A stretch of 60,989 nt of DNA, filler included, from Stramenopiles sp. TOSAG23-2 (GCA_900128395.1; 4 parts of 4 records of this genome joined end to end with filler, not necessarily neighbours in it); one strand, 5' to 3'. Positions 1-45,840 are shown, counted from the first letter of the whole stretch. The notes: generated by a model not told the origin, from the sequence alone. Made by a program: numbers and translations.

Positions 1-215
1 ACGTTAGGGTATGGAAAATACCAAAAAAAGCTCCATATAGCGAGTACACAGCATGGTATAATGGCACATAAGATAGTTCAACAGCTTTAATACAATACGA
101 TTTTTTTCTTTATAATTTTATTTTACTACACCCGTAAGTACAAAGTGATAGGAAACATGGAAAAACTGCCAAATGGCACAGTATCACAACTCTGTATAGG
201 TGCAATTTTCCACCA

Positions 216-255
216 GGCGGGCTGGGCGGGCTGGGCGGGCTGGGCGGGCAGGGGG
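216..255. repeat. GC-rich 9-bp tandem repeat (GGGCGGGCT)x~4 with G-quadruplex potential
   Basis: Sequence ggcgggctgggcgggctgggcgggctgggcgggcaggggg in otherwise very AT-rich DNA. Confidence 0.9.
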
Positions 256-15207: not shown

Positions 15208-15307
15208 NNNNNNNNNNNNNNNNNNNNNNNNNNNNNNNNNNNNNNNNNNNNTTAATTAATTAANNNNNNNNNNNNNNNNNNNNNNNNNNNNNNNNNNNNN
15301 NNNNNNN
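15208..15307. other. Artificial contig linker (N44-TTAATTAATTAA-N44)
   Basis: 100-nt block with a central all-frame stop cassette; identical at three places. Confidence 0.98.
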
Positions 15308-18300: not shown

Positions 18301-19585
18301 TACATTTGAAGGGACATTATTGCCACGAACGGTATTACAATGGGATACAGTATTTTATGTAAGTGCATTCGATGATGTTACTGTGACTCCATTAGTAAAG
18401 TTGGCATATGTACAAACCAGTGATCCATCAACACGTGATGATGCTAAAAAAAGTAATAAAATGGATAAAGACAAAGATGGAAAAGATGTAGATTTAGATA
18501 ACATGCCTGAGGAGTATTATTATGATAGTGAAATGGAAGATATGGAAGAAGATAATAATAACAATACGACAAATAATAATAATGATGATAATCATGAAAA
18601 TGTGCAACAATATGTTACAATTTTATGTGAGAAATATGACATATCAAAATGTGATTTCATAACAAGAGGACCAAATTGGATTAAACATTCTGTTGATTCA
18701 TTTACATCACTTTGGATACGTTTAAATCATGTTTTTTTCTCATATGGAGAAGCACATGTACATACAGAACGAACCAAAACACCAGAAGAAATATTAACAT
18801 TATTAGCATGTTGTTCACGTAAATATTTTCGATATCTTGGTATAATACCAGTTGGTCATAATATGATTGGTGGTGGATTTATAGGTACCACATGTGATAA
18901 CCATTGGCTTTGCTTTACAGTAACAATTGTAAAAGATCTTTCGTTTGATCAAACAAATAGTAATCATAATAATAATAATACTAGCAACAATGTAGTGCCA
19001 TTTTCATCGATTCAAACTGAAATGATGAATAAAACATTTTCAAAATCACATTTACAACATGTAAACGATACAAAAATATTTAATAAAAATAAAGAAGAAA
19101 AGGTAAAAAAAACAAATAATAATAATAATATGGTTAATACAAATGAAAATATTAAAATATGGAAAGCGCAATTTGAATTTCGTTCAGATAGTAATCATAT
19201 TTTAAAGCGTTTAAAAGGTGAAAAATTGTTTCATAATGATAATGGATATTCATTTTCAACGTTTCTTGATAGGATTAGTCATGGGTTGTTTCAAGGATCT
19301 TTGCAACAGCAACAGCAACGTAGTGATGTTCTTGGTGGAAATGCTAATAATAATAATGATGATGAGATATTTGCATCCTTATTGGAAAGAAAAGATGAAT
19401 TAATATTTGAAGTAGATCGTGTAAATAAATTAACAAAACATGATTGTTACAATGGTAATAATGACAATAATGAATTGTTCAATAGTGAAATGTTAGATCA
19501 AGCAATGGTTGGTGAGGAAGGGAATGATGAACGTGATATGGATGATTTATTATTTGTCGTTGGTGAGTTTCATAAGACCATGTAA
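15308..19585 (+). CDS. TPLATE-like beta-adaptin-related subunit (TSET complex), 5'-truncated
   Basis: Frame open from contig start (RIKQATLDRALL...DNVAFKAF). Appendage signature TLNGSSDPLMISMKH..RLTVSVRI and ILCEKYDI..DFI..SVDSFTSLW resemble TPLATE TLTGSSDPCYVEAYH / LRCQPYKIP..FRLW; the fold is shared with beta-COP. Confidence 0.65.
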   Translation, partial: RIKQATLDRALLIYKRIAKLAENENDNVAFKAFQGILKIVKEGRCPSINAIDDTLGNAPYAIKERSMHKNYIEHIPIYPTVLYDLTARFINAIAPRLHILIARGKALPLNTQYVVIETISYILRFLLDMGVRIRSDEPSRYESPIDWSISYVQTIVLPLLNVNINNMPSAVLASSNAIWNICCSKLMKLKRVEWYPHVVNNLIKMILQKDANFPYQVCNNNNNTNSSLFTTPTGFPYHIGEMIDRIVCCAEYMPKSEWYVKVPSIIRVIGSIIHVKKRLVMLQHVVDLIIIDMMKDNNEKNTTMNILTICFQQDSWLNALIYSPLLHLYNNTRNNTMYNNNNNNNTATPYYFREEIILSILLSWCKYNGIYNNKKDKQQNGKLKQKPIRVIQSVSTAFQLLDQFYICLSYNIHTNNSNNANKKIGESLRSALISHVYLDVFEICLKHIITTNDNNPDYETFIEKFYSNFLAEILEIKIQEEEDDNENNNNNNNGNNYTDYETFIEKFYSNFLAEILEIKIQEEEDDNENNNNNNNGNNYMSLPYHLKLNIQIHGMILILKYINVFIDYNNIHDNDIMGNANKEKRGQLEQAIIRILNIIVTITNKIGNNDDYTTTTKNNNNNNNHQRMKYFSNDHLISNMYIFIPTLLKFMKKALLKSREKQTIGTPLGSPIHHNMMGNVNMIENINDSIHKVIYQLEESNRVTNNTHNTDDIDDLMLNEGTLPTHTLSQMLKNLINNTSTILLGATGSTSESTNDIIGILINEDDVTTTGNRLDGNNQQTDKQHSMIGTGTFYDQITECAYDLKLTLCDDCNNNNNNNNNNNTLSIHSGILKYLFQLQDHIQTFHEEDSHTMEYNDNLTFRKHYIGDVKENDESILQDIMKKNTMIEKENVLKASWISSSKSLFLTNYYKNTQKKKDDPSPPPGLNIDEDIDYKTLNGSSDPLMISMKHQYFPLSKRLTVSVRIISMMNFPCYGPVHVRLALSNTRVLTLSPTGIQHTFEGTLLPRTVLQWDTVFYVSAFDDVTVTPLVKLAYVQTSDPSTRDDAKKSNKMDKDKDGKDVDLDNMPEEYYYDSEMEDMEEDNNNNTTNNNNDDNHENVQQYVTILCEKYDISKCDFITRGPNWIKHSVDSFTSLWIRLNHVFFSYGEAHVHTERTKTPEEILTLLACCSRKYFRYLGIIPVGHNMIGGGFIGTTCDNHWLCFTVTIVKDLSFDQTNSNHNNNNTSNNVVPFSSIQTEMMNKTFSKSHLQHVNDTKIFNKNKEEKVKKTNNNNNMVNTNENIKIWKAQFEFRSDSNHILKRLKGEKLFHNDNGYSFSTFLDRISHGLFQGSLQQQQQRSDVLGGNANNNNDDEIFASLLERKDELIFEVDRVNKLTKHDCYNGNNDNNELFNSEMLDQAMVGEEGNDERDMDDLLFVVGEFHKTM
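16674..16925 (+). repeat. In-frame 126-bp (42-aa) exact tandem duplication
   Basis: DYETFIEKFYSNFLAEILEIKIQEEEDDNENNNNNNNGNNY repeated; identical nucleotide copies at 16674 and 16800. Confidence 0.92.
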
Positions 19586-20731
19586 GACGTAGACGATGAA
19601 AGTACTAGTGCGGAAAGTGTGCGCAATGTGAGTCCATGTTTATGTATTGCAATGAGTTTTTTTTTTTGGTGTGAAAGGCGATATGAAAAGAAGGATAGGG
19701 AGTGTACGCAATGTGAGTCCATATTTATGTAATGCACACAAGCAACGTTTGTTTTTTTTTTTGGTGAAAGGGAGATGATATTGAGAGGTGATGGTACTAT
19801 AAGTTACTCGGTCAAGCTTCACACTATAAATGGTAATGTCTCGTCTTCTACGTCTTGCTTCTCTCTCCTTTTTAAAAAATGCAGCACAAGGGGCGAAGTG
19901 CGAAGTGGCGTAAATCTTACGAGTAGTAAGAATATTACGATAGTTATTTAGTCCTTTCATTCAGTTTTCCGAGTTCCGAGTACAATTATTACTTTTATTA
20001 GTGTAGTTTACATGCTGTTTTACTCGTACGTACCTGTTTTTCCTGCATTTACCTTTTTATACGATTGTTTCCTCTACTGTTTTTTGCTTTTTGCTTTTAC
20101 TACGAACTCCCTTCGTATTATTGTACTTACTTTAAATAAATGTAATATGTGTGTGAGTCACCTCTCGTCACCTTCTGGTTTTTGGGGCATAAAAATAACT
20201 GGTTAGCATAGGAATATCACCTCTGTGCCCCGCGGCGTGAAAACACTGAAAAATCATAAAAAATCAACTAAAAATCGGTATTTATTGATGATATTACATC
20301 ACTTGTTGTTGTAAATGTCAACCAATACGTATATACATTGAAAAGACACGTTCATATACATCGTAGTGTTCTTCCTCATATTTTGTTTAGAATCTTATAG
20401 ATAGTTGACCAAGTGCAATTGTTTTTTTTTTGTTTTTTATGATAGTAATTTTTTAGAAAATAAACACATCATATTAAAACATTTTGTTAATAATAGTAAA
20501 ATTAGCATAAAATAAGTGGGTTGGAAAGGTTAGTCACACTTTATATATTAGTTTTTATATAGATAGATTTCACAACAATATATAGATTAACATCTTCATT
20601 GTAATATATATATACATACATAGATACACACACTTACACACGTACAATAGATCATCGAATAGAAATACGATATAGATCATTTTGATATACATAATACTTT
20701 CATTTTTGTCATTATATTATACTTAAATATT

Positions 20732-20947
20732 ATGGGTAATTGCAGTACAAGAGAAGATAAAGGTAGTGGTGGAAAAGGTGGTAGTAGTAGTAGTAGTAAT
20801 ATTAAAAATAACCATGTAAGCCAGCAAAAAGATGCATTTGGTGGAAAAAGTGGGGAACAATCTTTAGGATTCAAACCACCTATTGTATTAAAGGTGTCTG
20901 AAATCGTGCGTCCCGATAATTATAGAATCAAAAGTAATAAAGCATAA
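20732..20947 (+). CDS. Small putative N-myristoylated/palmitoylated protein (71 aa)
   Basis: Starts MGNCST (G2, C4); coding-like composition after an AT-rich leader. Confidence 0.5.
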   Translation: MGNCSTREDKGSGGKGGSSSSSNIKNNHVSQQKDAFGGKSGEQSLGFKPPIVLKVSEIVRPDNYRIKSNKA

Positions 20948-21276
20948 AACAATTATATACGCGATGTGTATATATATAAACGTCATATAATTAGACAAAG
21001 ATTAATTGAACGATGATGGAAGTGAAGGAGTGGGAGGACAACCCTGGATACACTTGTACCACTTTTGAGTAAAAAATATAAATTAGACAAAAAGAGAGAG
21101 TAGCCGTAACGACAATAATCAGTTATAAAATCTAATATACATCACTTTTTACAACTCCCAAAAGATATATTTTGAAATTTGTTTATAATTGTTTAAAACA
21201 CGTATGAAACCGTAAAGCGTATCGCCCTTCGCTTCACCCTCTCACCACCTCATATGATTACAACATTATTATACAC

Positions 21277-23181
21277 CTACTCACGGCATTGCCAATAGAT
21301 CTTCTGTCTAAATTGAAATGGGCGTAATAAACGATGTTGTACTAATGTTTCAAGCAACAATTCCACCATAGGACGTTTTAAATGTGGTACATGTTTTAAT
21401 ATTTGTTCCAAGGACATGGCACCTGCGATACGATCAGTGGATGTTGTTTTCTTTTGATTACTAATACTTGCAAAGGAACTATATACTTCTGTAATACTAA
21501 TTGCACCTTTTCCAGTTTGAAAGGTAGATGGAAATAATGATAAATCAAAATCAGGTGCTGGTGTACCATCATCAATAGATTCTTCCAATGCTAATGCCAT
21601 TGCTTCAATATCTAAATCAGGTAATGGAGACGATTGAATACTACTTGTATTGCCATAATCATCGATATTAAAACTAGATAGGTTACTATCATCATTGTTA
21701 TTGGATGTATTATTATTATTATCTTGGTCTTGATTATTATTACTAATAATGTCATTACCAATACTAGTAATACTATTCCGTCGACTACTTGATTGTGAAC
21801 CTGTTGCTATTCGATGTGATAATGGAGTTCCAAAATTAAATGGTGATGCAGTGATATTCATACTATTATTCATATTCCTTATTGATGTCATCATTAATGA
21901 TGAAACATTGCTTGAATCGTTGTTATTATTATTATTATCATCAGTACTAGTATCAACAATATTACTTAGATTTAAATTAATACTAATATTCGACATATTA
22001 TTGCTACTACTACCAGTATTGTTATTGTCAATGGCATCATCTTCTTCATCTTCCTCCTCCTTGTTAGTATTACGACTATTTTTTTTACCAGCACCAGCAC
22101 TTGGTGACGATGCAATTAAATTATTATTATTAGACGTATCACTATCAATTGGTGTTGCAGAATATTTTCCTATTAATGGTGAATTCAATCCAGGTGTTTT
22201 TGGTGAATTTAATGATGATGTATTCAATGATGTATTATTATTGTTATTGTTTTTACGTATGGAAGACGGAGACGTTGATAATTGTTGTATTGCACTATTG
22301 TTTGTACGATTTGTTTCTGCGGAGGAAGAACTTTCCCATCTTCTATCATTTAATCCTTTTATCAATGGTGTTTTAATTGAACTTTGTAATTTTCGTATAG
22401 CACTCCAACGTGTTTCACTTTGATTGGAAGAACTTACTTCACTACCACCATGATGTGGCGTTGACATAATAATACTATTATTGTTTATTAAAATAGTTGT
22501 TTTTGTTTTAATACCACTTAAGGATGGTGTTGCATCGTCATCGTCGTCAGTCATCATGTTTGTATCTGTTATGTTGTTAGTTGTTTGTCCCGTGTTGTAT
22601 AGATAAATAAGAGAAAACTTACTTGATTTATGTTTAATAAGTGGTGTTTGCATCTTATTACTATCGATATTATTATTTGAACTATCACTCATCATAGAGT
22701 CATTATTATTATTGTTATTGCTACTACTATTTGATGAAGATTGACGATGACGTAAGAAATGTGTTGTTTTTGGTGGTGACATATTCATGGAAAAGTTCAA
22801 TCCAGCATTGGAAAATGTAGATGTATTTAAATCATCGTTCTCATTTCTTGGTGTTGTCTTCAATTTCTTTGCACTTGATTCATTATCCATGGATGTAGAA
22901 GAGGATGAACGTTTCTTATTATTATTATTACTACTTCCAGCACCATCATGGTCATCATCATTTTTTTTCAAATCACTTGTATCATTATTAAAACTATGAA
23001 AAAAACGTTTCCAAATTTTCAAACCACTATGTACATCATTTATGTTCTTACCAAACTCTTGTACTTTTGATAGTAATTCCATTGATGCTTCATGTGCTTC
23101 TGAGAAATTATCATCGATTTTTTGCAAGGTATTTGTAATTTTTTGATCCAATATATCTACTTCATCGTTAATGGTACTCAT
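21277..23181 (-). CDS. ASK1: DASH/Dam1 kinetochore complex subunit Ask1-like
   Basis: N-terminal LDQKITNTLQKIDDNFSEAH...WKRFF matches the Ask1 pattern (LEQEITLxLQEIDxNFS..FWKQFF); long S/T/N-rich disordered middle; ATG at 23181. Confidence 0.8.
   Translation of the reverse strand: MSTINDEVDILDQKITNTLQKIDDNFSEAHEASMELLSKVQEFGKNINDVHSGLKIWKRFFHSFNNDTSDLKKNDDDHDGAGSSNNNNKKRSSSSTSMDNESSAKKLKTTPRNENDDLNTSTFSNAGLNFSMNMSPPKTTHFLRHRQSSSNSSSNNNNNNDSMMSDSSNNNIDSNKMQTPLIKHKSSKFSLIYLYNTGQTTNNITDTNMMTDDDDDATPSLSGIKTKTTILINNNSIIMSTPHHGGSEVSSSNQSETRWSAIRKLQSSIKTPLIKGLNDRRWESSSSAETNRTNNSAIQQLSTSPSSIRKNNNNNNTSLNTSSLNSPKTPGLNSPLIGKYSATPIDSDTSNNNNLIASSPSAGAGKKNSRNTNKEEEDEEDDAIDNNNTGSSSNNMSNISINLNLSNIVDTSTDDNNNNNNDSSNVSSLMMTSIRNMNNSMNITASPFNFGTPLSHRIATGSQSSSRRNSITSIGNDIISNNNQDQDNNNNTSNNNDDSNLSSFNIDDYGNTSSIQSSPLPDLDIEAMALALEESIDDGTPAPDFDLSLFPSTFQTGKGAISITEVYSSFASISNQKKTTSTDRIAGAMSLEQILKHVPHLKRPMVELLLETLVQHRLLRPFQFRQKIYWQCRE
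22566..22622 (-). other. Probable 57-nt in-frame spliceosomal intron in Ask1
   Basis: Minus strand reads GTAAGT...ACTAAC...ACAG; 57 nt, no stop codon. Confidence 0.7.
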
Positions 23182-23493
23182 GTTTGAACAAAACAAAAAA
23201 AAATTCAAATATATTTTTTAATTTTTTAAAAAAATTGAGGTGAAATTAAAATGTTGAATTACAAAAAAAAAAATATGTATCGAAAAACTTTTTATAAAAT
23301 ATGTTTCAATGCTTGTGGTGGTTATTATATATTTAAATTAGATACGTATACCTTGTAACTCGATGTATTATATTATATATATATATATACAAATCGAAAA
23401 AACATTTTGTGATACACACATACTATATATATATATAGGTATATATATTTTGAATTTTTTATGATAAAATATGCATTTTGTTGACCCTTTTCG

Positions 23494-23762
23494 GTATTCT
23501 AATTTCCCTTTCAAGTATAATTATGTGTCATTCGATAGGAAAAATGAAGATTTTAAGTATTTTTTTGTGTTTTAAGTATTTTAGTAGTTTTTGTTTTTTA
23601 CAGTATTCTAATTTCCACTTCCAAGTATAATTTATGTGTCATTCGATAGGGTAAAATGAGATTTTTTATTTTTTTTAAGTGTTTTAAGTATTTTGTGCGT
23701 TTTTGTTTTTTATAGTATTCTAATTTCCACTTTCAAGTATAATTTATGTGTCATTCGATAGC
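23494..23762. repeat. ~110-bp tandem repeat, ~2.5 copies, in a divergent intergenic region
   Basis: Core gtattctaatttcc(a)ctt(t/c)caagtataatt(t)atgtgtcattcgatag at ~23494, ~23603, ~23715; the T-rich linkers are similar to each other. Confidence 0.9.
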
Positions 23763-24086
23763 TGGATAGCGTGGAAATCGATCGTGTGTCCAATCTTCTT
23801 CTAATTTTGCACATTTCAACCAAATATATATATATATATATAAAAAGATAGAACAAATATAAGAAAATCAAAGATCACTTCTTTGCATCAATTTTTACCC
23901 GTCATTCATTAAACACGGCCATAAATTCTGTGTAGGAAAAGCGTTCATACCATATACACGTGTATGTTTTATTTAAAAAAAAAATTTTTATCATTTTTAA
24001 AAATTTTAATTAATTAATTAAATTCCTAAAAAAAAAAAAAACTCAATAAAATAATTCAACCCCAATTATATACACCAAAAAAAAAC

Positions 24087-24799
24087 ATGTCACGCGCCAT
24101 TTTAAACATATTAAAACGAAATACTACTGCTAATACATCCCCATCCTCCTCCAATATATGGAATGTCAATACAACCGAACCTGGGCCATTAAAAAATGTA
24201 CGTGTAGTTGATGTATGTGAAGTTATATCTGGTCCATATACATCTGGTTTACTAGCTGATTTAGGTGCAGATGTTATTAAAATTGAAAAAACAAATGGAG
24301 TTGGTGATTCCTTCCGACTTTCACAACCGCGTGGTCCAAAAGTCAATGATGAAAGTTCACCACATCATAATGAAACCATTGGTATGGCATTTGCAATCGC
24401 AAATCGTGGAAAACGTTCAATAGCATTGAATTTACAAGAGAAAAAAGGTATAGACATATTAAAACAAATTGTAAAAGATGCAGACGTCTTTGTACAAAAT
24501 TGGAGACCAGGTGTAGCTGGACGTCTTGGTGTTAACTATGATGAATTAAAAAAAATCAATCCAAAATTAATTTATCTATCAATATCTGGATATGGTCAAA
24601 CTGGTCCATATGTTAAAAAGAAAGTATATGATTCCGTGATACAAGCACAAATTGGCATGGCAAATATTAATGGGACTGGTAATGGACAAAATGAACCACG
24701 TGCACCACAATTATTACCAAATGCCGTGATCGATAAAACTACATCACATACTGCAGTACATGCAATCCTTGCAGCTTTATACGCACGGGATGCATCAGG

Positions 24800-24838
<39 letters not shown>

Positions 24839-25493
24839 TGCATCCAATGAAGGTCAACATATTGAATTATCCATGATGGATGCTGGTTTATCCTATATAT
24901 ATCCAGATTCATATTCAAAATATTGGACGGATGAAAATATATCCCATGAAAGTAATATTGCAATGGTCTTTGATATTTGGGAAATGATTGATGGTGCAGC
25001 AACTGTAGTTGCATTATGGGGAGAACCTGAATTCGATCGTTTAATAACAAAGTTTCCATATTTACAAGAGATTAAAGATAATCCAAAATTTAGTGATAGA
25101 CGTAAACGTTTAAGTAATAAACCAGAATTTACAAAAGAATGGAATCGTATTGCAGTTCATGAAAATAAAATTAATGTGGAAGATTTTTTAAATGCATGCG
25201 AAGAATTATCCATACCAGCTGGTAAAGTAAGTGGACCACAAGATATCTTTGATGATCCACAAATGAAACATATGAATAGTTTAGTGAAATCACAAAACAA
25301 TTTATATGGTGAAACAATTCAACCACGTCCACCATATATCTTTTCGAAAACGAAATTATCGAAAAAAATCAAATCAACACCAATGTATGGAGAACATAGT
25401 ATTGAAATATTGGAACGTTTAGGATATAGCCCATCTGAAATTGAAATGTTAAAACGGGATAAAGTATTTGCAAAAGGTATACCAAAAGATTAG
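24087..25493 (+). CDS. CoA-transferase family III (CaiB/BaiF), possibly mitochondrial
   Basis: GPLKNVRVVD..ISGP..LADLGADVIKIE, NRGKRSIALNL, ADVFVQNWRPG, SISGYGQTGPY, catalytic Asp in YDSVIQA, GQHIELSM; basic N-terminal presequence-like segment. Confidence 0.93.
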
Positions 25494-26281
25494 TTTTTTA
25501 CATACATTGGATGTTAGTGCCTTGCGTCCAGCAAAGAAGAAGTAGTGTAGAAATATTTTTGTAGTAATTAAATGTTTTATCCACAAGGGATGATGTTGCA
25601 AAGAGAGCTAGACGTCTCAGATGTTTAATTAGTGTCGTTCACACAGGTGGACATGTGTGAGAAAGAGTGTTATTAAAACATATTATGACTTTCGTAGAAT
25701 TTTTACACCACACCATCTCGTAAATGTGTTGAACGTTTTTCGTCTCGGTTCGGCAGAAATATTAAAAATTCATACTTTTCTAAATTCACTGAAATATCGA
25801 GAGTGCACTAAAAAATGTCACTCCTCCATAAATCTGACATCAAAACTTCATTACAGACGCTTTTGTCAAACCGGAAACACATCGAGACGTATAATATATT
25901 TATAATCCAAGATCATTTCAAAACAGGAGACATTCCTCAGGACGAGACGTTTCTTAATTTGCCTCTTCTTTCACTAGTGTTCGGCACACATACCTTTTTT
26001 TTTCACGTTTTTTCACCATTTTTTCCCTTCAAAAGGGGTTTTTTTTTTATTGAAATTTGTTGATTTTTTAGCTAGCCGTTGGTAAACATATACATATATA
26101 TTATATATACATATATATACACACACACATGACATACACATGACATAGAAAATATACAAACCAATCATAAACATATAGACAATAAAAAAAAAACAAGAAC
26201 AGAACAAGTCAAACTGTAGACAAACATAATTTTCTTTTACATATACATATATACATACATTCTCTTCATAATATATATAAA

Positions 26282-26701
26282 TTATACAATAAATATTATA
26301 TATATTACATATGTCACATCGTTCATCACCGAAACGTAAAATACATCCAAATCCACTTGGTGGTGCAGTATGGATTGCAGAGAAAGGGCGACTAGATAAT
26401 AATAATTAGCACTTTCTAATGCTTCTTTTAAATATGTAATATTTTCATGTTTCACGATTTGCAATGCTTCTGCTTCCCATTTCACTTCCACTAATTCTTC
26501 TGGTGAACATTTGCTCTTATCAATGATTTTCACGGCCCATATTTTGTCCTCTTTATCCGTTGCTTCAAAGACAGTAGCATAACTACCTTCTCCTAATTTT
26601 TTCCCTAATTTATATTTTGAAACTAATACATTATCTGAACGAAATGGTTCAGTGCCACCTGAATCATTTCCAACTTTACTTGATGATGATCCACAACCCA
26701 T
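26282..26701 (-). pseudogene. Truncated CAMK-group protein kinase (N-lobe only) with MGCG acylation motif
   Basis: YKLGKKLGEGSYATV, WAVKIIDK, alphaC Glu, HENITYL..YYYLV, then similarity stops; no HRD/DFG found downstream. Confidence 0.7.
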
Positions 26702-27907
26702 TGTTTTATATTATATATCGTCGTGTGTTGTTTTTGTTGTTGGTGTGGTATGATGGCTTTGTGTCGTCGTGTATTGGGAAGTATTATATATAGAAATGTG
26801 TGTGTGTGTGTCCAAAAAAATAATAAAAAAATATTATATTTGAAATCTCGAAATGAATATATATATAGTATCTGTCAAAACTATTATAGCTTACAACTAT
26901 ATCGTGGGATTTTTTAAATACTAAACAAGTTTATGATATGGATTGTTTGATTAAAGAAAGGATGTTTTGTTTTGCATTCAACGATCTGCATTGCATCTCT
27001 CTCACACACACATTCTATGTATTTTTATGTATAAAATATGTCCATCAAAATGGCTTTCAGGTGATGGAGTTTGTAAAAAAATAACACTACACACTATGGG
27101 AAACATATTTTTTGATGAGTTTATTTACGAATTTTGGCAGTTTCTCGTTTCGTTTTACCTTTTGGTTGAGTTTACGAAGACACAGCATTACAGTTACTTT
27201 TTACATGGACACAGCATTATCAGTATATAACCCTACTATGTAACATGAGATTACACCAACTTTTTTTCACAAACAAACATTTTCGATATTTTCATAAACA
27301 CAGCATTGATTTATATATAGACTCGATAGCTCGATAGCTCGATAGTGGATAGTGGTCTCTATATGTCTCTATTAGTAAAAGTAATAAGTACCCATTTTGC
27401 CAATTTGTTTTTACAAGATGACAGTGTTTTTATTTTACAGCCTTTCTGGCTTTCTTGTAAAAGTTTGCATGTAAGGAAATAACACTATTTATAATGGAAG
27501 AAAGGAAGAGAGTATTTGGATAATATTAATAGATGTGAGGCAAGGTGCGATCTTATAGTTTCAATAGTATTAGTAAATATCCGATTTGGTGATATTTATA
27601 GTGTGTTAAAATTAGTATGTAATAGAATGAAATATAATGATCTTTGTAAAGATGTTTATTCTTCTATTTATGCAAAAAAGGAAAAAGCGACCTCAATTTT
27701 AATTATGATATCTTCCTTTATTTTCATTAGCAGTAGTTGGCTGGTTGGTGCGTTGATTCAAGCGCTCAACATTTTTTATAATAATATTAATATATATTAT
27801 TACTGTACGTATACCTGGTATAGCATATACCTACACAGCCTAAACAGGTATAATACAAGCAAACACGTACAAAAAAACAAAACGAAAACGAACCTAAAAC
27901 AGATACT

Positions 27908-29971
27908 ATGGCGCGGACAAAGCAAACTGCAAGACGTTCTACTGGTGGGAGATGCCCAAAATATCTTTTACCAACTAGAACAACACCAATACAATCAGTA
28001 TCAAGTGAGGAGGTCATTCAGGTGCGTGAGCTATTTGTCGCCAATATACAGGAACTACGAAGTATGTATCATCATACGTTTGAAAAATTATGCGGGAAAG
28101 TGTTTCAAACACAATATGGGGGAAACATAAAGGTATCAAATGTTGGAGCTGACAATGGGGTAGATGTTATCTTACAGAAAGAAGATTTGATTAATGGCTA
28201 TACAAAGCTAGTTATACAGTGCAAGCGATATGCTAAAGGAAATAATATTAGCATTAGTGCACTTGATAGGCATATGCAAGTGATTAGAAACGAAGGAGGG
28301 ACCAAAGGTTTTTTTGTCACTACCTCTGATTATGCAAAGGGGGAAGCACAGAAAAAAATTAGAGACTACAGACACAAAATGACATGCTGGAATGGAGAGC
28401 AATTTTTTCATATATTATCTTCTCAACAATGGTGGAAAAATGAAAACAATCGCCGTCGGAATCTTGCAGGTAGTAGTAGTAGTAGCAGTAGCAGTAGTAA
28501 TTCAAATATAAATCGTTTGAACCAATTACAGGCGAAGCTTGCCACGGTACAAACTGCCCCCCCAAACGAAAAGAAGCGCAGGAAGCGCAAACGTGAAATC
28601 GAGATAGACAAGCTCAACACTGAAATAAGTCAAGTAAAGAAACGAATTCGTATCAACAACGAAAAAGATGCTGAAATAGAGAGAAAACGTAGAGAAGCAA
28701 TACGTAAACAAGCTGAAATTGACAAAATGAACAATATATTATCAAACGAAGATACATCTGCCATTAACGATAGAGTATTAGAACAAATGAAAGATGTTTT
28801 ATCAGAAATACATAACAATTGTATTGATTTCAGCCGTAAAGACTTGGGCAATGGTGGTGTAGAAATATTAATTAAACTTTTAAAGGGTTTAAATATACCA
28901 ATTAGAAAACTAACTTTAGTTGGTAATTCTATAAACGATGAGCCAGGATTTCTTGAAATTGCAGATTTCATTAGTGAATGTACAACTATTACAGAATTGG
29001 TTTTAAATAATAATACTATATCAGATAGCTATGACATATTTATCGAGATGTTGGAGGAAAATACTTCGTTGGAATATGTTAACATGGGAAAAAGTTGGTT
29101 TGATGAATTTACAGATAAAATTATTCAAGATAATGATTGTAAACTTTTCATGAGAGAACACATGTTAAAACATAAATATGGTGTTAATTACAATTTACAA
29201 TTAATTTGTAAAAAAGGTAACTTAAATGATGTCAAATTTATAATAGAAACATTAGATGATTATAATGTGAATGATACTGACGATGATGGAAATACTGGAT
29301 TGTATTATGCTGCATACAATCAACATGAAGATGTTGTAAGATATTTACTGTCGAAAGGTGGTCAACAGAGTGATGTTGATAATGGAAAAAGTCGGAAAAA
29401 AGAAGAAGAAGAGGAGATAATTAGTTCAATAAGGGAATTAAGGAATAAATATTATGCAGAATTTCCACGCGGTACGCCAATAGTATGTGCATGTGAAAAA
29501 GGACGTTTTGAGGATGTGAAATTATTGATTACAGGCTATAATGATGTGAATGGTAGTAATGGTAATAATAATAATAATATGACATTGAAAGAATACGTGA
29601 ATCAAGTCGGTAAAGATAGTGAAGGTATTGAATGGACACCTTTAATGGCAGCTGCATGGGAAGAACAGTTCCAAATAGTTAAATATTTGATTGAACAATG
29701 TGAAGCTGATCCTAATATTGCAGATAGTGATGGATCGAATGCATTACATTCTGCAGCAGGTAATAACAAAAAGGATACGAAGTTGATTGAGTTATTATTA
29801 ACTAATATGCCTCTTACTAGCATTAATAAGAAGGGCGGGTTCGGGCAAACTCCCCTGGACTGGGCATATCTTAATAATAGTCCAATTCAACAAAAGATCA
29901 TTGATCTTATACGTTCAAAAGGTGGAAAACGTGAAGAGAAGATAGAGAGTAGTGAAGATGATGATTATTAA
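27908..29971 (+). CDS. Histone H3-tail mimic + Mrr-like restriction endonuclease + NLS/coiled coil + LRR + ankyrin-repeat protein
   Basis: MARTKQTARRSTGGRCPK; FEKLC..GADNGVDVI..VIQCKRY..GFFVTTSDY..WNGEQF (Mrr_cat); KKRRKRKR; LxxLxLxxNxI repeats; ankyrin repeats GNTGLYYAA, TPIVCAC, TPLMAAA, NALHSAA, TPLDWA. Confidence 0.88.
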   Translation: MARTKQTARRSTGGRCPKYLLPTRTTPIQSVSSEEVIQVRELFVANIQELRSMYHHTFEKLCGKVFQTQYGGNIKVSNVGADNGVDVILQKEDLINGYTKLVIQCKRYAKGNNISISALDRHMQVIRNEGGTKGFFVTTSDYAKGEAQKKIRDYRHKMTCWNGEQFFHILSSQQWWKNENNRRRNLAGSSSSSSSSSNSNINRLNQLQAKLATVQTAPPNEKKRRKRKREIEIDKLNTEISQVKKRIRINNEKDAEIERKRREAIRKQAEIDKMNNILSNEDTSAINDRVLEQMKDVLSEIHNNCIDFSRKDLGNGGVEILIKLLKGLNIPIRKLTLVGNSINDEPGFLEIADFISECTTITELVLNNNTISDSYDIFIEMLEENTSLEYVNMGKSWFDEFTDKIIQDNDCKLFMREHMLKHKYGVNYNLQLICKKGNLNDVKFIIETLDDYNVNDTDDDGNTGLYYAAYNQHEDVVRYLLSKGGQQSDVDNGKSRKKEEEEEIISSIRELRNKYYAEFPRGTPIVCACEKGRFEDVKLLITGYNDVNGSNGNNNNNMTLKEYVNQVGKDSEGIEWTPLMAAAWEEQFQIVKYLIEQCEADPNIADSDGSNALHSAAGNNKKDTKLIELLLTNMPLTSINKKGGFGQTPLDWAYLNNSPIQQKIIDLIRSKGGKREEKIESSEDDDY

Positions 29972-30415
29972 AATATATTAAACTGTAATAGTATGTACCT
30001 GCTATTTTTTTACAAAGTTAATGAATGAATAATTGATGAAAGAGGTGTAATTTCATAGAAAGAAGAAACTCTCCATTTACATTTAAAAGAAAATATATTT
30101 ATTATCATATACGCGATCGTGTACAACCAGAAGACAACGAGGAAAAACAATTTCCAGCTTTTATTATTTTTTTTTACTATTATATATATTTTTTATAATA
30201 ATTTATAATTTATAATTTTGCAAAATAAATTTAACATTTATTACGGGGATTTTATTATAAAGCAATTATTATTATTCGAAAACATTATAATAATAATAAT
30301 TGGTAACAAGTGTTTATAAGTTTTGATAATATATATATATATATATCCAAAGAACAAATTACAACAAATTACAACAAGAAAAAACATATATCAAAAAATA
30401 CAAATCTTAGTGACG

Positions 30416-30479
30416 ATGTCAAGGAAATCTTACCGTGAAGATGATTTATTTACAAAGTTACCCACAACTACGATTACAG
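30416..30479 (+). CDS. Possible 5' end of a gene cut by the contig end (MSRKSYREDDLFTKLPTT...)
   Basis: ATG after an A-rich leader; frame open to the gap. Confidence 0.35.
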
Positions 30480-30579
30480 NNNNNNNNNNNNNNNNNNNNN
30501 NNNNNNNNNNNNNNNNNNNNNNNTTAATTAATTAANNNNNNNNNNNNNNNNNNNNNNNNNNNNNNNNNNNNNNNNNNNN
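30480..30579. other. Artificial contig linker
   Basis: N-TTAATTAATTAA-N, 100 nt. Confidence 0.98.
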
Positions 30580-31749: not shown

Positions 31750-31818
31750 GTCACAACTAATAAGACTTACTCTGTTGTCTATTATACTACTTTCTATTTT
31801 CATTCTACTACCATTAAT

Positions 31819-32012
31819 TATACTCAGTAAATATAAGTTTATGAAATCACTCTCAATCATGCAAATGGGCCAATAATGCACCACAACGCTTGACAATATC
31901 TTCAAATGCATCATGTATACTCAGTAAATATAAGTTTATGAAATCACTCTCAATCATGCAAATGGGCCAATAATGCACCACAACGATTGACAATATCTTC
32001 AAATGCATCATG
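31819..32012. repeat. 97-bp tandem duplication spanning the stop codon of the SH3/GTPase gene
   Basis: Units 31819-31915 and 31916-32012, one mismatch. Confidence 0.93.
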
Positions 32013-35000
32013 CACCTTCGTGCCTGTCTTTGCAGAGACAGAGAAATAATTTGTATCATCGTTTAAATTTGCTTTTACCCAACTTCGTACGTGTTCGGGT
32101 ACTGATGGGCTAGATTTGTTTTTGTCATCAATTTTCGTTTTCACAATTGTTAATTTTCCACTCCAAAATGTAAACAAGTTTAGCCATTCCTCATGATCCA
32201 TATTATCGTCATCAAATGTATATATGACACCATAAACAGTGTCTTTTATCTTTGAAAATTTCTTTGGATCATCTATTTCTTCCACTATTATTTTGTATTT
32301 ATCTTCATCGCTAATTTTGACAATTTTTGAATATTCTGATTTTGATCCCAAGACCATATTTGGATCAGAAACAAAGGTATTGTATAAATATCTAACAAAG
32401 AAATTAGTCTTTCCAGATCCTTTTTGTCCTAATATGATTATTTTTATCAGACTTTTACAGTCTTCAAGCTCTGCATCATGGTCTGGCTTAGTTAATTCTA
32501 CCGCACGTTCGACTCGATTTGATTGTATTTTTGATATTATCTTGAAGGCTTTTTTATACCACAAACTTAGTTTCCATTCTGTTAACCATGTTTGTGATTC
32601 TTTTTCAAAAGCTAAGGCGGACAGCGAGAAAAAAGTATCAATAATTTTTAACAGTAATTTCATTGGTTTATGTTCTTTCATTCCTGGTAGATACTCCTCA
32701 CCTTCCTTCGTTAAATCCTGCACAATGTCCCACCGATTCTCACACAATGCACATAAACAAGCACGTTGATAGCATCGAGCCACTGATAGCTTTGCTTCGT
32801 CTATACCATCGTCATTAACCAATTTTTGATGTAACGCTCTTAACCATAATTCAGCGGTCAATATAAATTGCTTTCTTGCACTACCATATGAATTTTTTCC
32901 ATCTATATTTAAAAAAGCGGTCAATGATGCTAACCTGTCTTTTACAAATCCCAACTGAGAAAATGTTTTATTCAATGGTAAGATATCTAACAATTCCACC
33001 GATCGTGTGAAGTGTTTAACTGCAAATTCATACCATACAGTAGGATTTTCCCCGCTCATTTCAGCTTCCACTTCGCAACTTTTTCCTTTTCTCATAGCAA
33101 CTTGAGCTACTTCCATAACACTTGCATGCTCGTTGAAATTAATATGATCTTTTCCTTCGTCATCTTTCCACCATCGGATAATATCTCGCGGTGACTCTCC
33201 ACGCAGCTTTTCATTTTCTGGCTGTACTTTTCCATTTTTATATTTTGAAGATGAATTTGCTTTCAGGCAGCATGACATATATGATAATAAACGTGTTGAA
33301 AATCTTCTTGCAAGGAATATAATTAGAATAAACAAGACTGCAAAAATTGTTTGTAAAACTGCAGTTTCTGGTGTTGTTGAGCCGCAAAAACTAGTTGGGG
33401 ATGCTAAACAACTTATATTTATTACAATGAACAACAATCCAACATAAAATGTACCTACGACGACATCCATGTGAAATTTCTTTTTCGACATCATACCAGT
33501 AACGTCATGTCCTCTTTCTTTTGCCCTTTGCAACATTGGTTGTAATTTTTCGTTTGCATTTCTTGCTTGAATGGTGTTCATATGGACTATTTCTCCTTTT
33601 GCTTTTCTAGAACTTGAAGATGTTGATATCTCGGACCACTCAGTTAATTTAGTTAAACGGAAATATAATAAGTCAAGCATTCCTTGAGAAAATAAATTAT
33701 CAGATTCTTTGTTTGAATTCAACACCCTTGCTTTTTTTAATAACTTTTCAAGATCATTTCTTTCCATTACATTGTAACAAATTGCAGACGGGTTTGCTGG
33801 ATTTAACATCTTTCGCAGGGACCAAAGTTTCAAAAGATTTCTGTTGTGCACCCAAATGTCGTGCCAAAATATATACCACATTTCTGCGGCCGGATCACCT
33901 TGCAAATGACCAATTCTGGCGTATATATAATCAAATGCTTCTACATTGTCTTCATATATTTTCAAAATTCCAGGAGATTCCACATTCCACTTCTTTAGCC
34001 AATTAATTATTTCACTTCTACTCATTCCTGGCACATTAAATATTTCCCACCAAAAGGATGTCGGCAGCGTTTTTTCATTTTTCACAGTCTGATCGTATAA
34101 GCTTTTTCGTTGTTCATATATTAAGGTTTTAACATCATATTCAAGCATTCCAATATCTTCATCTCCAACAATTTTTCCACTTGTGACAATACAATGATCT
34201 TCGTCTTCCATTGGACTAAAATCTTTATCAACTCCTAGATCATCTAATTTTATCGATGTTGGTCGATCATGGACAGTATATTCCCGTGACTTATATTCAC
34301 AGCGTCCAAATCCATCTGCATAGTTCATAGTGACGTCAAAACCTGGATTTCCATAGATATCCAATGATCCATCGCTTGCTTTAATTACAAGCCTTCCTTC
34401 TTCAAATTCTAGATCCATGTCTATATCTTTCATCATGCCTCCCTTCACCTTAACTGGTTCATACCTGCCTTCCTTATATGGGAAATGTACTTTAATCTTC
34501 GAATTTTTTGCCAGTGCCCTTAATGTCAAACGCGTTTCTTTGCGAATAGCAGCAATAGATGATTTATTTTGTTCGGCTATTTTTAAAATACTTTTACCAT
34601 CAAAAAGTGTAACTTTTTCGCCGGAATCATAATACAATACACAAGTAAATGGAAATGGCAACGTTTCTAATTTACAAAAGCAATTTTTAACTACATGGTC
34701 TTTATCAGATTCATCATCTGGATCATACCAGCAATCAACACCTTCACATGTAGACATTAAATATTGGCGTGCTTCTAAAATACCAGGATGCGCTATTTCT
34801 TGTTTAAAATGATCAACAATTCTACTAATGCCGTGAGTGGCTACTAAATCCTGCATTTCAGTCCATCGTTTGGAAATTTCGCTTCCGGAATATTCTCTAA
34901 GTATTATCTCCCAGAATGGGTGCCAAAGTCGATGTTTTATCTCCATGCCAACATCCCACGATTTTATAACGTCTACAAAGCCAATTTTATGTACTGTAGA

Positions 35001-36725
35001 GCTTGTATCCTCGAATTGAAACACATTTCGAAAGTTTTTAAAAAGCAAATTTATTTTGCCTATTAACAATAGATTTATGATTGCATAGCAAAATAATAAA
35101 GCTAATATTGTTAACAATAATGAATCTGCGTACACTTTAGAACCATCCGTAACGTAACCCTCAGATTGTACAGTGACTGTTGATAATAGCCATATTGTTA
35201 AGGCACTGTAAAGATTTACCCTATTTGTTTGAATCGATGTATACGGGCCTGGAAAAATCAAGTATATCATACTATAAAAGCTTTGTCCATAAAAATACAT
35301 TCTTATTGGATTATCTTTCGTGCTATACAATAAAAATATTGCAACAGCTTTAAATCCAAAATGATATACACGTGTGTACCGACGTTCTCTTTTAAATGGT
35401 GCATATAGAAATCTAAATGGACTTTTTACATGTTCCTCATTATGATGCAACAGATCATAAAATTTTACATCAGCGTGGCTTTCTAAATGTTGCCCTTTTC
35501 CAAAAATTTCATCACTGTCATGTATTACTGGCGTGTATTTGTTAATCATTAAGATCATAAACATCATATTTAACAGCAAAGGAAACCAACAAATTGGCAA
35601 TATTATATATTTCAAGACATCAAAATCTACACCTAGCGTTGAAACATCTCCCAATATCATAGCTGAACGACAAGACGGTAAATATAGAATGTAAAGAACT
35701 ACTAGTTGGAGCTTCCAACCAAGTTTGGAGAAACACCCGTGATCATGGACGTTATTGCCATTGGTGCTTGATACATTTTCTTTAGCCGCTACAATTTCAT
35801 TGTTGCGAACCCCATTTTCCATATTTGACATGTTTTGCTTATTGAGCTTTTTACTGTTCTGGCTATTTTTCTTGTTAATTTTTTTCTTCTTTTTGCATTT
35901 TTTGAATATACCTATATGTTTGGATGCCCAGATGTAGAAAAGGTAAAAAGAAAACCATTGATAGAGGATAAGAACGCCTCCAACAAGGCACCAAAGGATT
36001 TCAAAATCAAATATGCTTCCAAAATCTAACACAGTAAGAGAAAATATATAACCAAGTGATGTGGAGAACCTTGTAAACGAAGGGTAATGCGATGCATTGC
36101 TTGTTGCAATTCCACATATAGCTCCTAAAAGTTGGCAAAAGTCTATGATCGTAACTATATGTTCCGTAGATAAGTGCTCACAAATACTTTTAGTAGGAGC
36201 ATGGATTTTTTCATATTGTGAATCAGTTAATTTCATCCATTTTTTTATTACCTTTTTATCTATTGTCGACAAAGAACTTGCATCAGTGGCTTTAATTTCA
36301 TTAGTGGTTATGTTGGAATTGTTATTAGCATCTATCACTTTTGTATCTTCTTCCACTTCTGCTAACTCTGATGTTGCATTTTTTTTATCAGTGCTTTCGT
36401 CATTATTTTTCTCAGTATTTTTGGGGGTAGAATCTTCCTTGGCCACAGACGTTGTATTTTTACCTTTAATTTCTACCGTCTTGTCCTCCTCTTTCTCACT
36501 AGTTGAAGTGACTTCTGGAGTAACTTTGGCCTGAGCTTCAGATTTTGTAGGAATCTCCTTTAGTATTTCCATATAATTTGCTTGTACTAAGCCTTCTTTG
36601 CCGTCGATAGAACATTTATACCAAAAATCATTAACCTTCTCTACAAGCTTAACAATTGCATCCTTTTCAACATCTAGTTCAGCATCCTTCTGTGCTTGGA
36701 ACGTAAACTTTAGTCTGGCAGACAT
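31950..36725 (-). CDS. Multidomain membrane protein: SH3, multiple TM helices, SNAP-like helical region, C-terminal Ras/Rab-like GTPase
   Basis: ARLKFTFQAQKDAELDV..WY..GKEGLVQANY (SH3); many hydrophobic segments; IIILGQKGSGKT, TKID, SVSAKTG (G1/G4/G5). Confidence 0.8.
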   Translation of the reverse strand: MSARLKFTFQAQKDAELDVEKDAIVKLVEKVNDFWYKCSIDGKEGLVQANYMEILKEIPTKSEAQAKVTPEVTSTSEKEEDKTVEIKGKNTTSVAKEDSTPKNTEKNNDESTDKKNATSELAEVEEDTKVIDANNNSNITTNEIKATDASSLSTIDKKVIKKWMKLTDSQYEKIHAPTKSICEHLSTEHIVTIIDFCQLLGAICGIATSNASHYPSFTRFSTSLGYIFSLTVLDFGSIFDFEILWCLVGGVLILYQWFSFYLFYIWASKHIGIFKKCKKKKKINKKNSQNSKKLNKQNMSNMENGVRNNEIVAAKENVSSTNGNNVHDHGCFSKLGWKLQLVVLYILYLPSCRSAMILGDVSTLGVDFDVLKYIILPICWFPLLLNMMFMILMINKYTPVIHDSDEIFGKGQHLESHADVKFYDLLHHNEEHVKSPFRFLYAPFKRERRYTRVYHFGFKAVAIFLLYSTKDNPIRMYFYGQSFYSMIYLIFPGPYTSIQTNRVNLYSALTIWLLSTVTVQSEGYVTDGSKVYADSLLLTILALLFCYAIINLLLIGKINLLFKNFRNVFQFEDTSSTVHKIGFVDVIKSWDVGMEIKHRLWHPFWEIILREYSGSEISKRWTEMQDLVATHGISRIVDHFKQEIAHPGILEARQYLMSTCEGVDCWYDPDDESDKDHVVKNCFCKLETLPFPFTCVLYYDSGEKVTLFDGKSILKIAEQNKSSIAAIRKETRLTLRALAKNSKIKVHFPYKEGRYEPVKVKGGMMKDIDMDLEFEEGRLVIKASDGSLDIYGNPGFDVTMNYADGFGRCEYKSREYTVHDRPTSIKLDDLGVDKDFSPMEDEDHCIVTSGKIVGDEDIGMLEYDVKTLIYEQRKSLYDQTVKNEKTLPTSFWWEIFNVPGMSRSEIINWLKKWNVESPGILKIYEDNVEAFDYIYARIGHLQGDPAAEMWYIFWHDIWVHNRNLLKLWSLRKMLNPANPSAICYNVMERNDLEKLLKKARVLNSNKESDNLFSQGMLDLLYFRLTKLTEWSEISTSSSSRKAKGEIVHMNTIQARNANEKLQPMLQRAKERGHDVTGMMSKKKFHMDVVVGTFYVGLLFIVINISCLASPTSFCGSTTPETAVLQTIFAVLFILIIFLARRFSTRLLSYMSCCLKANSSSKYKNGKVQPENEKLRGESPRDIIRWWKDDEGKDHINFNEHASVMEVAQVAMRKGKSCEVEAEMSGENPTVWYEFAVKHFTRSVELLDILPLNKTFSQLGFVKDRLASLTAFLNIDGKNSYGSARKQFILTAELWLRALHQKLVNDDGIDEAKLSVARCYQRACLCALCENRWDIVQDLTKEGEEYLPGMKEHKPMKLLLKIIDTFFSLSALAFEKESQTWLTEWKLSLWYKKAFKIISKIQSNRVERAVELTKPDHDAELEDCKSLIKIIILGQKGSGKTNFFVRYLYNTFVSDPNMVLGSKSEYSKIVKISDEDKYKIIVEEIDDPKKFSKIKDTVYGVIYTFDDDNMDHEEWLNLFTFWSGKLTIVKTKIDDKNKSSPSVPEHVRSWVKANLNDDTNYFSVSAKTGTKVHDAFEDIVNRCGALLAHLHD

Positions 36726-45740: not shown

Positions 45741-45840
45741 NNNNNNNNNNNNNNNNNNNNNNNNNNNNNNNNNNNNNNNNNNNNTTAATTAATTAANNNN
45801 NNNNNNNNNNNNNNNNNNNNNNNNNNNNNNNNNNNNNNNN
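45741..45840. other. Artificial contig linker
   Basis: N-TTAATTAATTAA-N, 100 nt. Confidence 0.98.

Follow-up and report, generated by a model that had tools for sequence, protein, structure and literature searches.

The window analysed here is a stretch of 60,989 bases from Stramenopiles sp. TOSAG23-2 (GCA_900128395.1) that consists of four pieces, each about 15.2 kb long, with N44-TTAATTAATTAA-N44 spacers between them at positions 15208-15307, 30480-30579 and 45741-45840. Within it, at 27908..29971 on the plus strand, lies a gene for a protein of 687 residues that is a chimera of, in order, a copy of residues 1-13 of histone H3 (with the change K9R), an Mrr_cat nuclease domain, a poly-serine run, a basic helix, approximately three leucine-rich repeats (LRRs) and two ankyrin blocks. 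The gene is real, transcribed and intron-less, and belongs to an uncultured marine protist.

A transcribed gene with an H3-like start

Scanning for open reading frames (ORFs) identified a single frame across the gene, uninterrupted over 687 codons, a length that would not be expected by chance given that the G+C content of the DNA is about 33%. The evidence for transcription takes the form of contigs rather than reads, and comes from the RNA runs X4 (oligo-dT), X6 (polyA) and X9, to which one independent DNA run, X3, can be added. Part of the stretch is present in 20 of the 22 listed public runs, 11 being RNA runs and the holders coming from 13 studies, and the habitat labels given for the runs are all marine, seawater or plankton. 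Three RNA contigs pass from the H3-like tail into the nuclease domain: X4 record 8 (27896-28163, with no differences from the window), X9 record 24 (27883-28160) and X6 record 16 (27932-28370). The poly-serine linker is covered by X4 record 11 (28331-28545), and further RNA contigs tile this linker, the helix, the LRRs and the first ankyrin block, with no joints or introns across 27883-29452. Over 27300-27819 the depth is zero in the three RNA runs while the DNA run X3 continues there, and this silent stretch serves as a control; the starts of the RNA contigs hint at a transcript 5' end 12-25 nucleotides (nt) upstream of the ATG.

The start codon has an A at -3 and a G at +4. Upstream of it there is an in-frame stop and no ATG in the leader, and the next Met, residue 53, lies inside a domain that is conserved from residue 37, so the H3-like start is the only workable one. 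A preliminary description of this DNA, made from the sequence alone, had proposed the uninterrupted 687-residue frame and had named two ways in which its account could fail, namely that no reads or transcripts would bridge the domains and that translation would begin downstream of the H3-like segment. The frame is as described, RNA contigs run through the tail into the nuclease, and a downstream start is excluded by the position of the next Met.

The likeness to histone H3 is confined to the extreme N-terminus. A sequence search of the PDB with residues 1-200 gave 130 sequences at E<=10, the best 60 of which are all histone H3 (E 0.0011-0.0052), aligned N-terminus on N-terminus over query residues 1-23 up to 1-39. 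Of the 24 residues that follow the initiator Met, 15 are identical to H3, with 12 of the first 13 matching and 3 of the following 11 (Fisher p 0.002). Given the amino-acid composition of the window, ARTKQTAR.STGG would arise at a fixed position with a probability of about 6e-16, and this, together with the PDB matches, indicates homology or strong convergence rather than chance. The tail keeps K4, along with R2, T3, T6, R8 and S10, while every other modifiable lysine is lost: the positions of K9, K14 and K23 are occupied by Arg and that of K18 by Tyr. No histone family is present among the 15 Pfam families found at E<=1, and the alignments to H3 in the PDB end at query residues 23-39.

The tail is followed by a nuclease domain for which several lines of evidence agree. 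Pfam Mrr_cat (PF04471) matches residues 50-169 with E 1.4e-18 (67.5 bits against a cutoff of 21) and Mrr_cat_2 matches with E 4.5e-7. The catalytic residues E59, D82/D86 and Q104-x-K106 are present; in a 47-sequence alignment, built with the shorter matches of the exhaustive search described below, D82 and D86 are invariant and E59 and K106 are conserved in at least 90% of sequences, and in the closest family sequences (7 of 7) E59, D82, D86, Q104 and K106 are all invariant. The AlphaFold2 model of residues 1-200 (predicted local distance difference test, pLDDT, 84.7) is disordered over residues 1-33 and confident over residues 38-192, with values above 90 over most of the domain. Searching the PDB with Foldseek returned seven matches at E<=0.001, among them MspJI (5.9e-7), AspBHI (9.3e-6), AF1548 (1y88; 6.6e-4) and FokI (8e-4), and further down the list are BamHI, Card1 and Avs4 (rank 36, E 0.015). 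Neither an Mrr_N winged-helix sensor nor an SRA-type domain is found among the 15 Pfam families at E<=1, whereas a bacterial relative, P0013, does have Mrr_N (E 2.1e-12); NACHT, NB-ARC and other STAND nucleoside triphosphatase (NTPase) domains are likewise absent from the Pfam families at this threshold. Matches of the protein to PADLOC models are limited to its nuclease and ankyrin parts.

Beyond the poly-serine linker, the full-length AlphaFold2 model predicts helices at residues 197-215, 223-279 and 288-305, with pLDDT of about 70-88 for residues 201-260. The LRRs are sub-threshold in Pfam (LRR_4 E 0.056, LRR_6 E 0.26), and residues 301-401 align in register, in several registers, with the LRR_6 array of the relative P0006 (BLASTP E 2e-4). 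The ankyrin repeats are strongly matched (Ank_2 E 2.1e-27, 95.9 bits against 27.3; Ank 77 bits against 21.1; PDB ankyrin proteins up to E 5e-18), and the second block is followed by an acidic C-terminal end. This full-length model, built on a 7-row alignment, reached a pLDDT of only 46.1 and a predicted template modelling score of 0.28, and its LRR/ankyrin half is not usable.

The domain assignments of the preliminary description largely hold. The Mrr_cat-like domain placed at about residues 50-170 coincides with the Pfam match, the two residues singled out for mutation, D86 and K106, are real family positions, and the fold, whose absence would have undone the proposal, is modelled as PD-(D/E)xK over residues 38-192. 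The two ankyrin blocks are recovered as stretches 427-501 and 576-666, and the stated lack of a histone fold agrees with Pfam. Three assignments stand in part: the H3-like segment is present, with a likeness that reaches about residue 24 rather than ending at residue 18; the proposed nuclear localisation signal (NLS) and coiled coil correspond to a basic cluster within a modelled helix, the NLS being assigned by inspection and the coiled coil being probable; and the LRRs of the ribonuclease inhibitor (RNI) type at about residues 305-396 are supported by alignment to P0006, with Pfam remaining below threshold.

Table 1. Coordinates of the features of the gene (positions in the window) and, in the last six rows, of H3-headed ORFs in environmental contigs (positions in each contig).
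Feature	Position	Strand	Basis or content
Short 5' leader	27883..27907	+	RNA contigs start at 27883 (X9) and 27896 (X4); ATG-free; in-frame stop at 27851
H3-like tail (residues 1-24)	27908..27979	+	PDB search; identity to H3
Linker (residues 25-37)	27980..28018	+	pLDDT <50 for residues 20-33; not common to paralogue P0007
Mrr_cat PD-(D/E)xK nuclease domain (structural residues 38-192; Pfam 50-169)	28019..28483	+	Pfam, alignments, AlphaFold2, Foldseek
Poly-serine low-complexity linker (residues 188-200)	28469..28507	+	Sequence; spanned by X4 record 11
Long helical, probably coiled-coil segment (residues 197-305)	28496..28822	+	AlphaFold2 helices; P0007 49% identical here
Basic cluster KKRRKRKR (residues 222-229)	28571-28594	+	Putative NLS, by inspection
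About 3 RNI-type LRRs (residues 305-396)	28820..29095	+	Sub-threshold Pfam; BLASTP register with P0006
Ankyrin block 1 (residues 427-501)	29186..29410	+	Pfam Ank_4, Ank_3, Ank_5, Ank_KRIT1; PDB ankyrin matches
Ankyrin block 2 (residues ~520-675; Pfam 576-666)	29465..29932	+	Ank_2 over 579-666, Ank 576-606; first repeat at about residue 524 by eye
L031	13-900	+	VWA domain, VWA_2 E 1.2e-11
L044 (MARTKQTARVTC...)	2-1468	-	RNI-type LRR, LRR_6 E 1.3e-6
L023	161-1144	+	No Pfam family
L030	130-1065	+	No Pfam family
L001	2282-2476	+	No Pfam family
L100	3001-3435	+	No Pfam family; contig labelled giant-virus

The second ankyrin block behaves differently from the rest of the gene in public data. In marine runs the summed contig depth over 29380-30003 ranges from hundreds to about 13,800, compared with about 2-15 over the rest of the gene, and many contigs diverge at the edges of the block, leaving loose ends at 29458, 29549-29586 and 29937. 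The segment is common to many other loci or organisms at a DNA likeness of at least 90%, which suggests a high-copy or shuffled ankyrin cassette.

The true genomic context of the gene is the piece at 15308-30479 only, which extends 508 nt beyond the end of the gene. Since the window consists of joined pieces, genes separated by a spacer cannot be taken as neighbours; for example, the SH3...Ras ORF at 31950-36725 is not demonstrably adjacent to the gene, given the spacer between them. The same piece holds a 1359-residue ORF without assignment, a DASH/Ask1-like gene (21280-23208, minus strand; DASH-complex Ask1 domain, E 6.5e-11) that may help in placing the organism, a CoA-transferase, and a short minus-strand ORF at 26282-26701 that is a kinase fragment by eye, and a short CTCGATAG/TGGATAG tandem repeat lies upstream of the gene, in the intergenic stretch at 27320-27352. 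The other pieces carry ordinary eukaryotic genes (an Upf1-like helicase, ATG16, Tubby, an exportin and a carnitine acyltransferase), and a 97-nt tandem duplication, 96% identical, at 31812-32005 overlaps the 3' end of the minus-strand SH3...Ras/Roc ORF of 1591 residues. As a marker of lineage, the acyltransferase has one match at 99% identity, a second at 48% that is named by function only, and after these animal proteins at 29%. Scans of the window for tRNA and Rfam families gave no match, a self-BLAST of the gene against the window revealed no paralogue, and a repeat search around the gene, in which ends of a mobile element were sought, gave AT-rich low-complexity matches only.

Relatives of the protein and other H3-headed frames

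An exhaustive HMMER search with residues 1-200 against 1.84 billion representatives gave 1567 matches at E<=0.001, of which 11 reach E<=1e-10 and 3 reach E<=1e-30. Among the 1567, the tail is present in P0005 (93% identical, with the same tail) and its two cluster mates only. Three further relatives are tail-less: P0006, a protein of 976 residues with Mrr_cat (E 5.3e-25), a long helical part and approximately 14 RNI LRRs (LRR_6 E 8.8e-42); P0007, which has Mrr_cat (E 8.3e-20) and is 49% identical over residues 37-332 (E 2e-85); and P0008, a fragment. The remaining matches are of prokaryote type, with Mrr_cat placed C-terminally and a full-length match to the PADLOC models of type IV methyl-directed restriction endonucleases (REases), models that the protein under study matches through its catalytic domain only. 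Judged by sequence and domain order, the protein thus belongs to a very small eukaryotic family composed of Mrr_cat, a helical segment and RNI-type LRRs, and because its other members are without the tail, this is a lineage-specific add-on, in which residues 1-36 were added or replaced.

With the full-length sequence, a search swamped by ankyrin repeats, three matches were obtained at E<=0.001 among 8000 scored candidates, and none of the three has the same architecture; the statement of the preliminary description that it recognised this architecture from no described protein is in keeping with this, and among the 1.84 billion representatives searched with residues 1-200 the tail is confined to P0005 and its cluster mates. 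A word-indexed search with residues 1-200 returned P0005 only, among 53 candidates, and missed P0007, and the ESM Atlas searched with residues 1-430 gave no usable match. A metagenome scan with residues 1-200 produced 590 matched stretches, of which 80 loci were kept, and contained no Mrr relative, being swamped by H3 genes through MARTKQTA. A donor H3 gene was not identified at the DNA level among these 80 loci, where the best agreements, 35 of 45 nt and 50 of 75 nt, are no better than those of codon-degenerate H3 genes generally. In viral contigs, residues 40-200 found three loci at 29% identity and no close relative, and residues 1-50 found 41 loci, nearly all of them ordinary H3 genes, with one non-histone ORF (L100) and no Mrr.

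Small differences separate the closest sequences. An in-frame 6-nt indel at 28025-28030 leaves P0005 without V-R at residues 39-40; the GTGCGT at this indel resembles a splice donor, and the RNA contigs pass straight through it. At 28982-29023, X6 record 20 carries clustered substitutions together with 9 inserted letters, and is probably not an allele but a paralogue of the LRR segment that has diverged.

The environmental contigs also contain long non-histone ORFs with an H3-type start (L031, L044, L023, L030, L001 and L100; Table 1), which suggests that the grafting of H3 tails is recurrent, although intron read-through or chimeric contigs may account for them instead. A further ORF of 108 residues, at 232-555 (+) of L016, has an H3 tail followed by what looks, by eye, like an H2B-type histone fold. 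Of the 41 H3-type starts in IMG/VR loci, 32 are accompanied by a histone-fold motif; since environmental giant-virus contigs carry H3 genes of their own, an interplay between viruses and chromatin exists in such habitats.

Possible roles of the tail

It is tentatively suggested, with somewhat less than even confidence, that the protein is a nuclear, repeat-regulated endonuclease that carries a K4-centred mimic of the H3 N-terminus, its activity, localisation and binding being predictions. Removal of the initiator Met, expected because the next residue is Ala, would expose A1-R2-T3-K4 as the free end that H3K4-centred readers recognise, and the basic cluster would bring the protein into the nucleus. 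In the absence of an Mrr_N sensor, the Mrr_cat domain may act as a cleavage module of the FokI/MspJI type and depend on self-association, for which the helical segment is a plausible site; a complex prediction for two copies of residues 36-300, made without controls, gave scores of 0.27 and 0.30, the mark being 0.32. The ligand-binding or regulatory part would be made up of the LRR and ankyrin repeats, in a logic like that of an NLR- or Avs-type immune protein without the NTPase switch, and the tail might dock to binders of H3(1-8), such as PHD-type readers, K4 methyltransferases or RBBP4/NuRD-type proteins, or to the protein's own ankyrin repeats in cis. Over 27908-28371 the contigs differ from the window at eight non-synonymous and two synonymous sites, a count that excludes the indel-rich cluster of X6 record 20, and such fast, mostly non-synonymous change at the N-terminus could fit a gene of conflict or immunity.

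Nevertheless, a number of observations weigh against this reading. When relatives more than 90% identical are compared, the tails of the three members of the P0005 cluster read MARTKQTARR.., MAQTKQTARC.. and MA--KQTARR..; AQTKQTARC is read both in P0155 and in the DNA run X3, P0156 lacks R2-T3, and X3 also carries K18R and Y19H. The changes thus fall on residues critical for readers, R2 and the K9 position, where Arg is replaced by Cys, among them. Given that known readers need R2 and a free A1-R2-T3-K4 end, certain alleles would make poor mimics. When four sequences are compared, the tail varies at 5 of 24 positions and the nuclease domain at about 6 of 160, so that no part of the N-terminal 200 residues is less constrained than the tail, and the ratio of eight to two substitutions also fits near-neutral drift, the counts being small. 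The tail-less paralogues presumably work as they are, which weakens the case for a core role of the tail. The remainder of the architecture is of limited help: the analogy with NLR proteins is loose because the NTPase is absent, the LRR part is short and weak in Pfam, and the packing of the domains cannot be read from so poor a full-length model.

The main rival explanation draws on the same variation. The 5' end of an H3 gene, together with its start codon, would have been captured as the first ~24 codons of a pre-existing Mrr_cat/helix/LRR gene, and the tail would be a young relic of this event, a drifting likeness without function. This is a possibility to be taken seriously, albeit on the doubtful side. 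It accounts for the tail-less P0006, P0007 and P0008, for the onset of homology with P0007 at residue 37, for the changes R2Q, R10C, K18R, Y19H and the loss of R2-T3 in close relatives, and for the concentration of variability in the tail, where all four of the X3 differences in codons 1-24 are non-synonymous; the H3-tail starts of the non-histone ORFs L031, L044 and L100 imply that such captures do happen. However, three observations run counter to it. First, if a single block was captured, the contrast between 12 of 13 and 3 of 11 identical residues (p 0.002) argues for constraint on the first half. Second, all four known alleles keep a recognisable K-Q-T-A-R...S-T-G-G string. Third, the recurrent grafts of H3 tails onto repeat proteins in the environmental loci suggest a usable module.

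It is also conceivable, but unlikely, that Mrr_cat is inactive as a nuclease and serves as a DNA- or protein-binding adaptor in the manner of the inactive REase domains associated with NACHT proteins, in which case the whole protein would be a chromatin scaffold. A scaffold would fit the abundance of protein-binding repeats and the H3-like tail, and Pfam records a weak match to NA-iREase1 (E 1.3e-5, 25.6 bits against a cutoff of 27, sub-threshold) that counts against an active enzyme. This match nonetheless says nothing on inactivity because genuine Mrr_cat proteins match the same model equally or more strongly, and every catalytic position is present and invariant in the family.

If the endonuclease is active and its tail is used, the tail and the ankyrin/LRR repeats may work as a pair by which a restriction-type nuclease is tied to the state of the histone-tail machinery, an extension that we consider rather unlikely. 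In one version, the protein's own ankyrin repeats would hold the tail in cis as a lock, from which it would be displaced by real H3 tails, by readers or by a viral factor that targets tails; in the other, the tail would be a true integrated decoy. If this pairing were correct, the protein would be a eukaryotic immune or genome-surveillance nuclease that has no NTPase and reads chromatin through histone mimicry, and it would be a single member of a broader class of repeat proteins, so far undescribed, that bear an H3 tail in protists and giant viruses.

The preliminary description had proposed a nuclease targeted or gated through H3-tail readers and writers, an integrated decoy being its example. 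While architecture, fold, expression and start site hold, such gating, a decoy function and dependence on modified DNA are conjectural. Taken as an explanation in its own right, the integrated decoy holds that the tail baits viral or parasite proteins that bind, modify or clip H3 tails, whereupon sensing by the LRR and ankyrin repeats would free the nuclease to act against invader or host DNA. An effector nuclease joined to repeat sensors and to a mimic of a host protein is an architecture of this kind, and the fast, mostly non-synonymous evolution of the N-terminus, the H3 genes of environmental giant-virus contigs and the presence of the Avs4 nuclease effector among the fold neighbours point in the same direction. 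The explanation is nonetheless improbable: there is no NTPase switch, the viral contigs yielded no close relative of the nuclease, and the bait is destroyed by variation in some alleles, though an arms race could yield the same pattern. The weakest alternative, that the tail and the nuclease were brought together by a chimera in the single-cell assembly or that the gene is a pseudogene, can appeal to the stitching of the window from four contigs and to the fragmentary assembly, and is scarcely tenable, given that the N spacers mark the junctions and none lies inside the gene, that the same junction of tail and nuclease is found in the independent DNA of X3, in three RNA runs of different studies and in three further database sequences from other sources, and that an open frame of this length is improbable by chance at such a G+C content.

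Comparison with known systems

In summary, the architecture is new, its parts are known, and the function of the tail is in doubt. With regard to the nuclease, the protein resembles the bacterial Mrr and other type IV enzymes, together with MspJI, AspBHI and FokI, in its Mrr_cat family, in its D...(Q/E)xK active site and in its closest solved folds. It differs from them in having no Mrr_N or SRA-type sensor (Pfam, E<=1), in being eukaryotic and nuclear-encoded with support from polyA RNA, and in the N-terminal rather than C-terminal position of the domain and its fusion to repeats of eukaryotic type. A eukaryotic domain of the Mrr type is, by itself, not new, because Steczkiewicz et al. 2012 (PMC3424549) already list the Mrr_cat/DUF2034 group for eukaryotes. 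The family of Mrr_cat, helix and RNI-type LRRs would join the list of bacterial-type immune parts that eukaryotes have reused.

An N-terminal effector with an REase fold followed by repeat sensors is likewise the arrangement of NLR/STAND proteins with nuclease effectors (Avs4, bNACHT), from which the protein departs in having a helical segment where the NACHT, NB-ARC or other NTPase domain would be. Kibby and colleagues, and Kaur and colleagues in 2021, are said to have described bNACHT proteins whose N-terminal domain is Mrr-like or of the REase type.

Histone mimicry is known mostly as motifs of 4-5 residues in viral proteins and a few human proteins. Here, a 13-residue copy of H3, aligned at the start of the protein, is carried by a restriction-type nuclease that looks catalytically intact, in a free-living marine eukaryote. 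Should the tail be used, this would be the first DNA-cutting enzyme wired to the network of histone-tail readers and writers, and would give a eukaryote a new way of directing or holding back a nuclease within chromatin, be it for defence or for selfish ends. The grafting of H3 tails, which the other H3-headed ORFs suggest to be recurrent, is worth a systematic survey, and the claims made here can be tested in vitro without culture. A literature search, in whose scope the list of 48 H3 tail mimics (H3TMs) compiled by Chen et al. did not fall, found no paper that joins a copy of the H3 tail to an Mrr-type nuclease.

Among the known mimics, influenza NS1 (ARSK), G9a (ARTK) and SetDB1 carry motifs by which, in PMC6028506 and bioRxiv 10.1101/2025.01.21.634156, histone readers and writers are described as hijacked or used. 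They share with the present protein an H3-like motif; theirs comprises 4-5 residues, is centred on K9 or K27 and is mostly internal or C-terminal, whereas the one reported here is N-terminal and centred on K4, with Arg at the K9 position. A parallel is found in H3TMs such as VRK1, BCL11B and PCLAF, whose N-terminus has the form iMet-(small residue)-R-x-K, where iMet is the initiator Met, and which after removal of this Met can show an H3-like A/S-R-x-K end to PHD or Tudor readers or to NuRD, according to Chen et al. 2021 (PMC8166343). The M-A-R-T-K at the extreme N-terminus of this non-histone protein follows the same iMet-Z-R-X-K rule. Unlike the H3TMs, which match H3 at approximately 4-5 residues and are carried by a transcription factor or a kinase, it matches H3 at 12 of 13 residues, with a likeness that fades by residue 24, and its carrier is a protist PD-(D/E)xK nuclease with LRR and ankyrin repeats.

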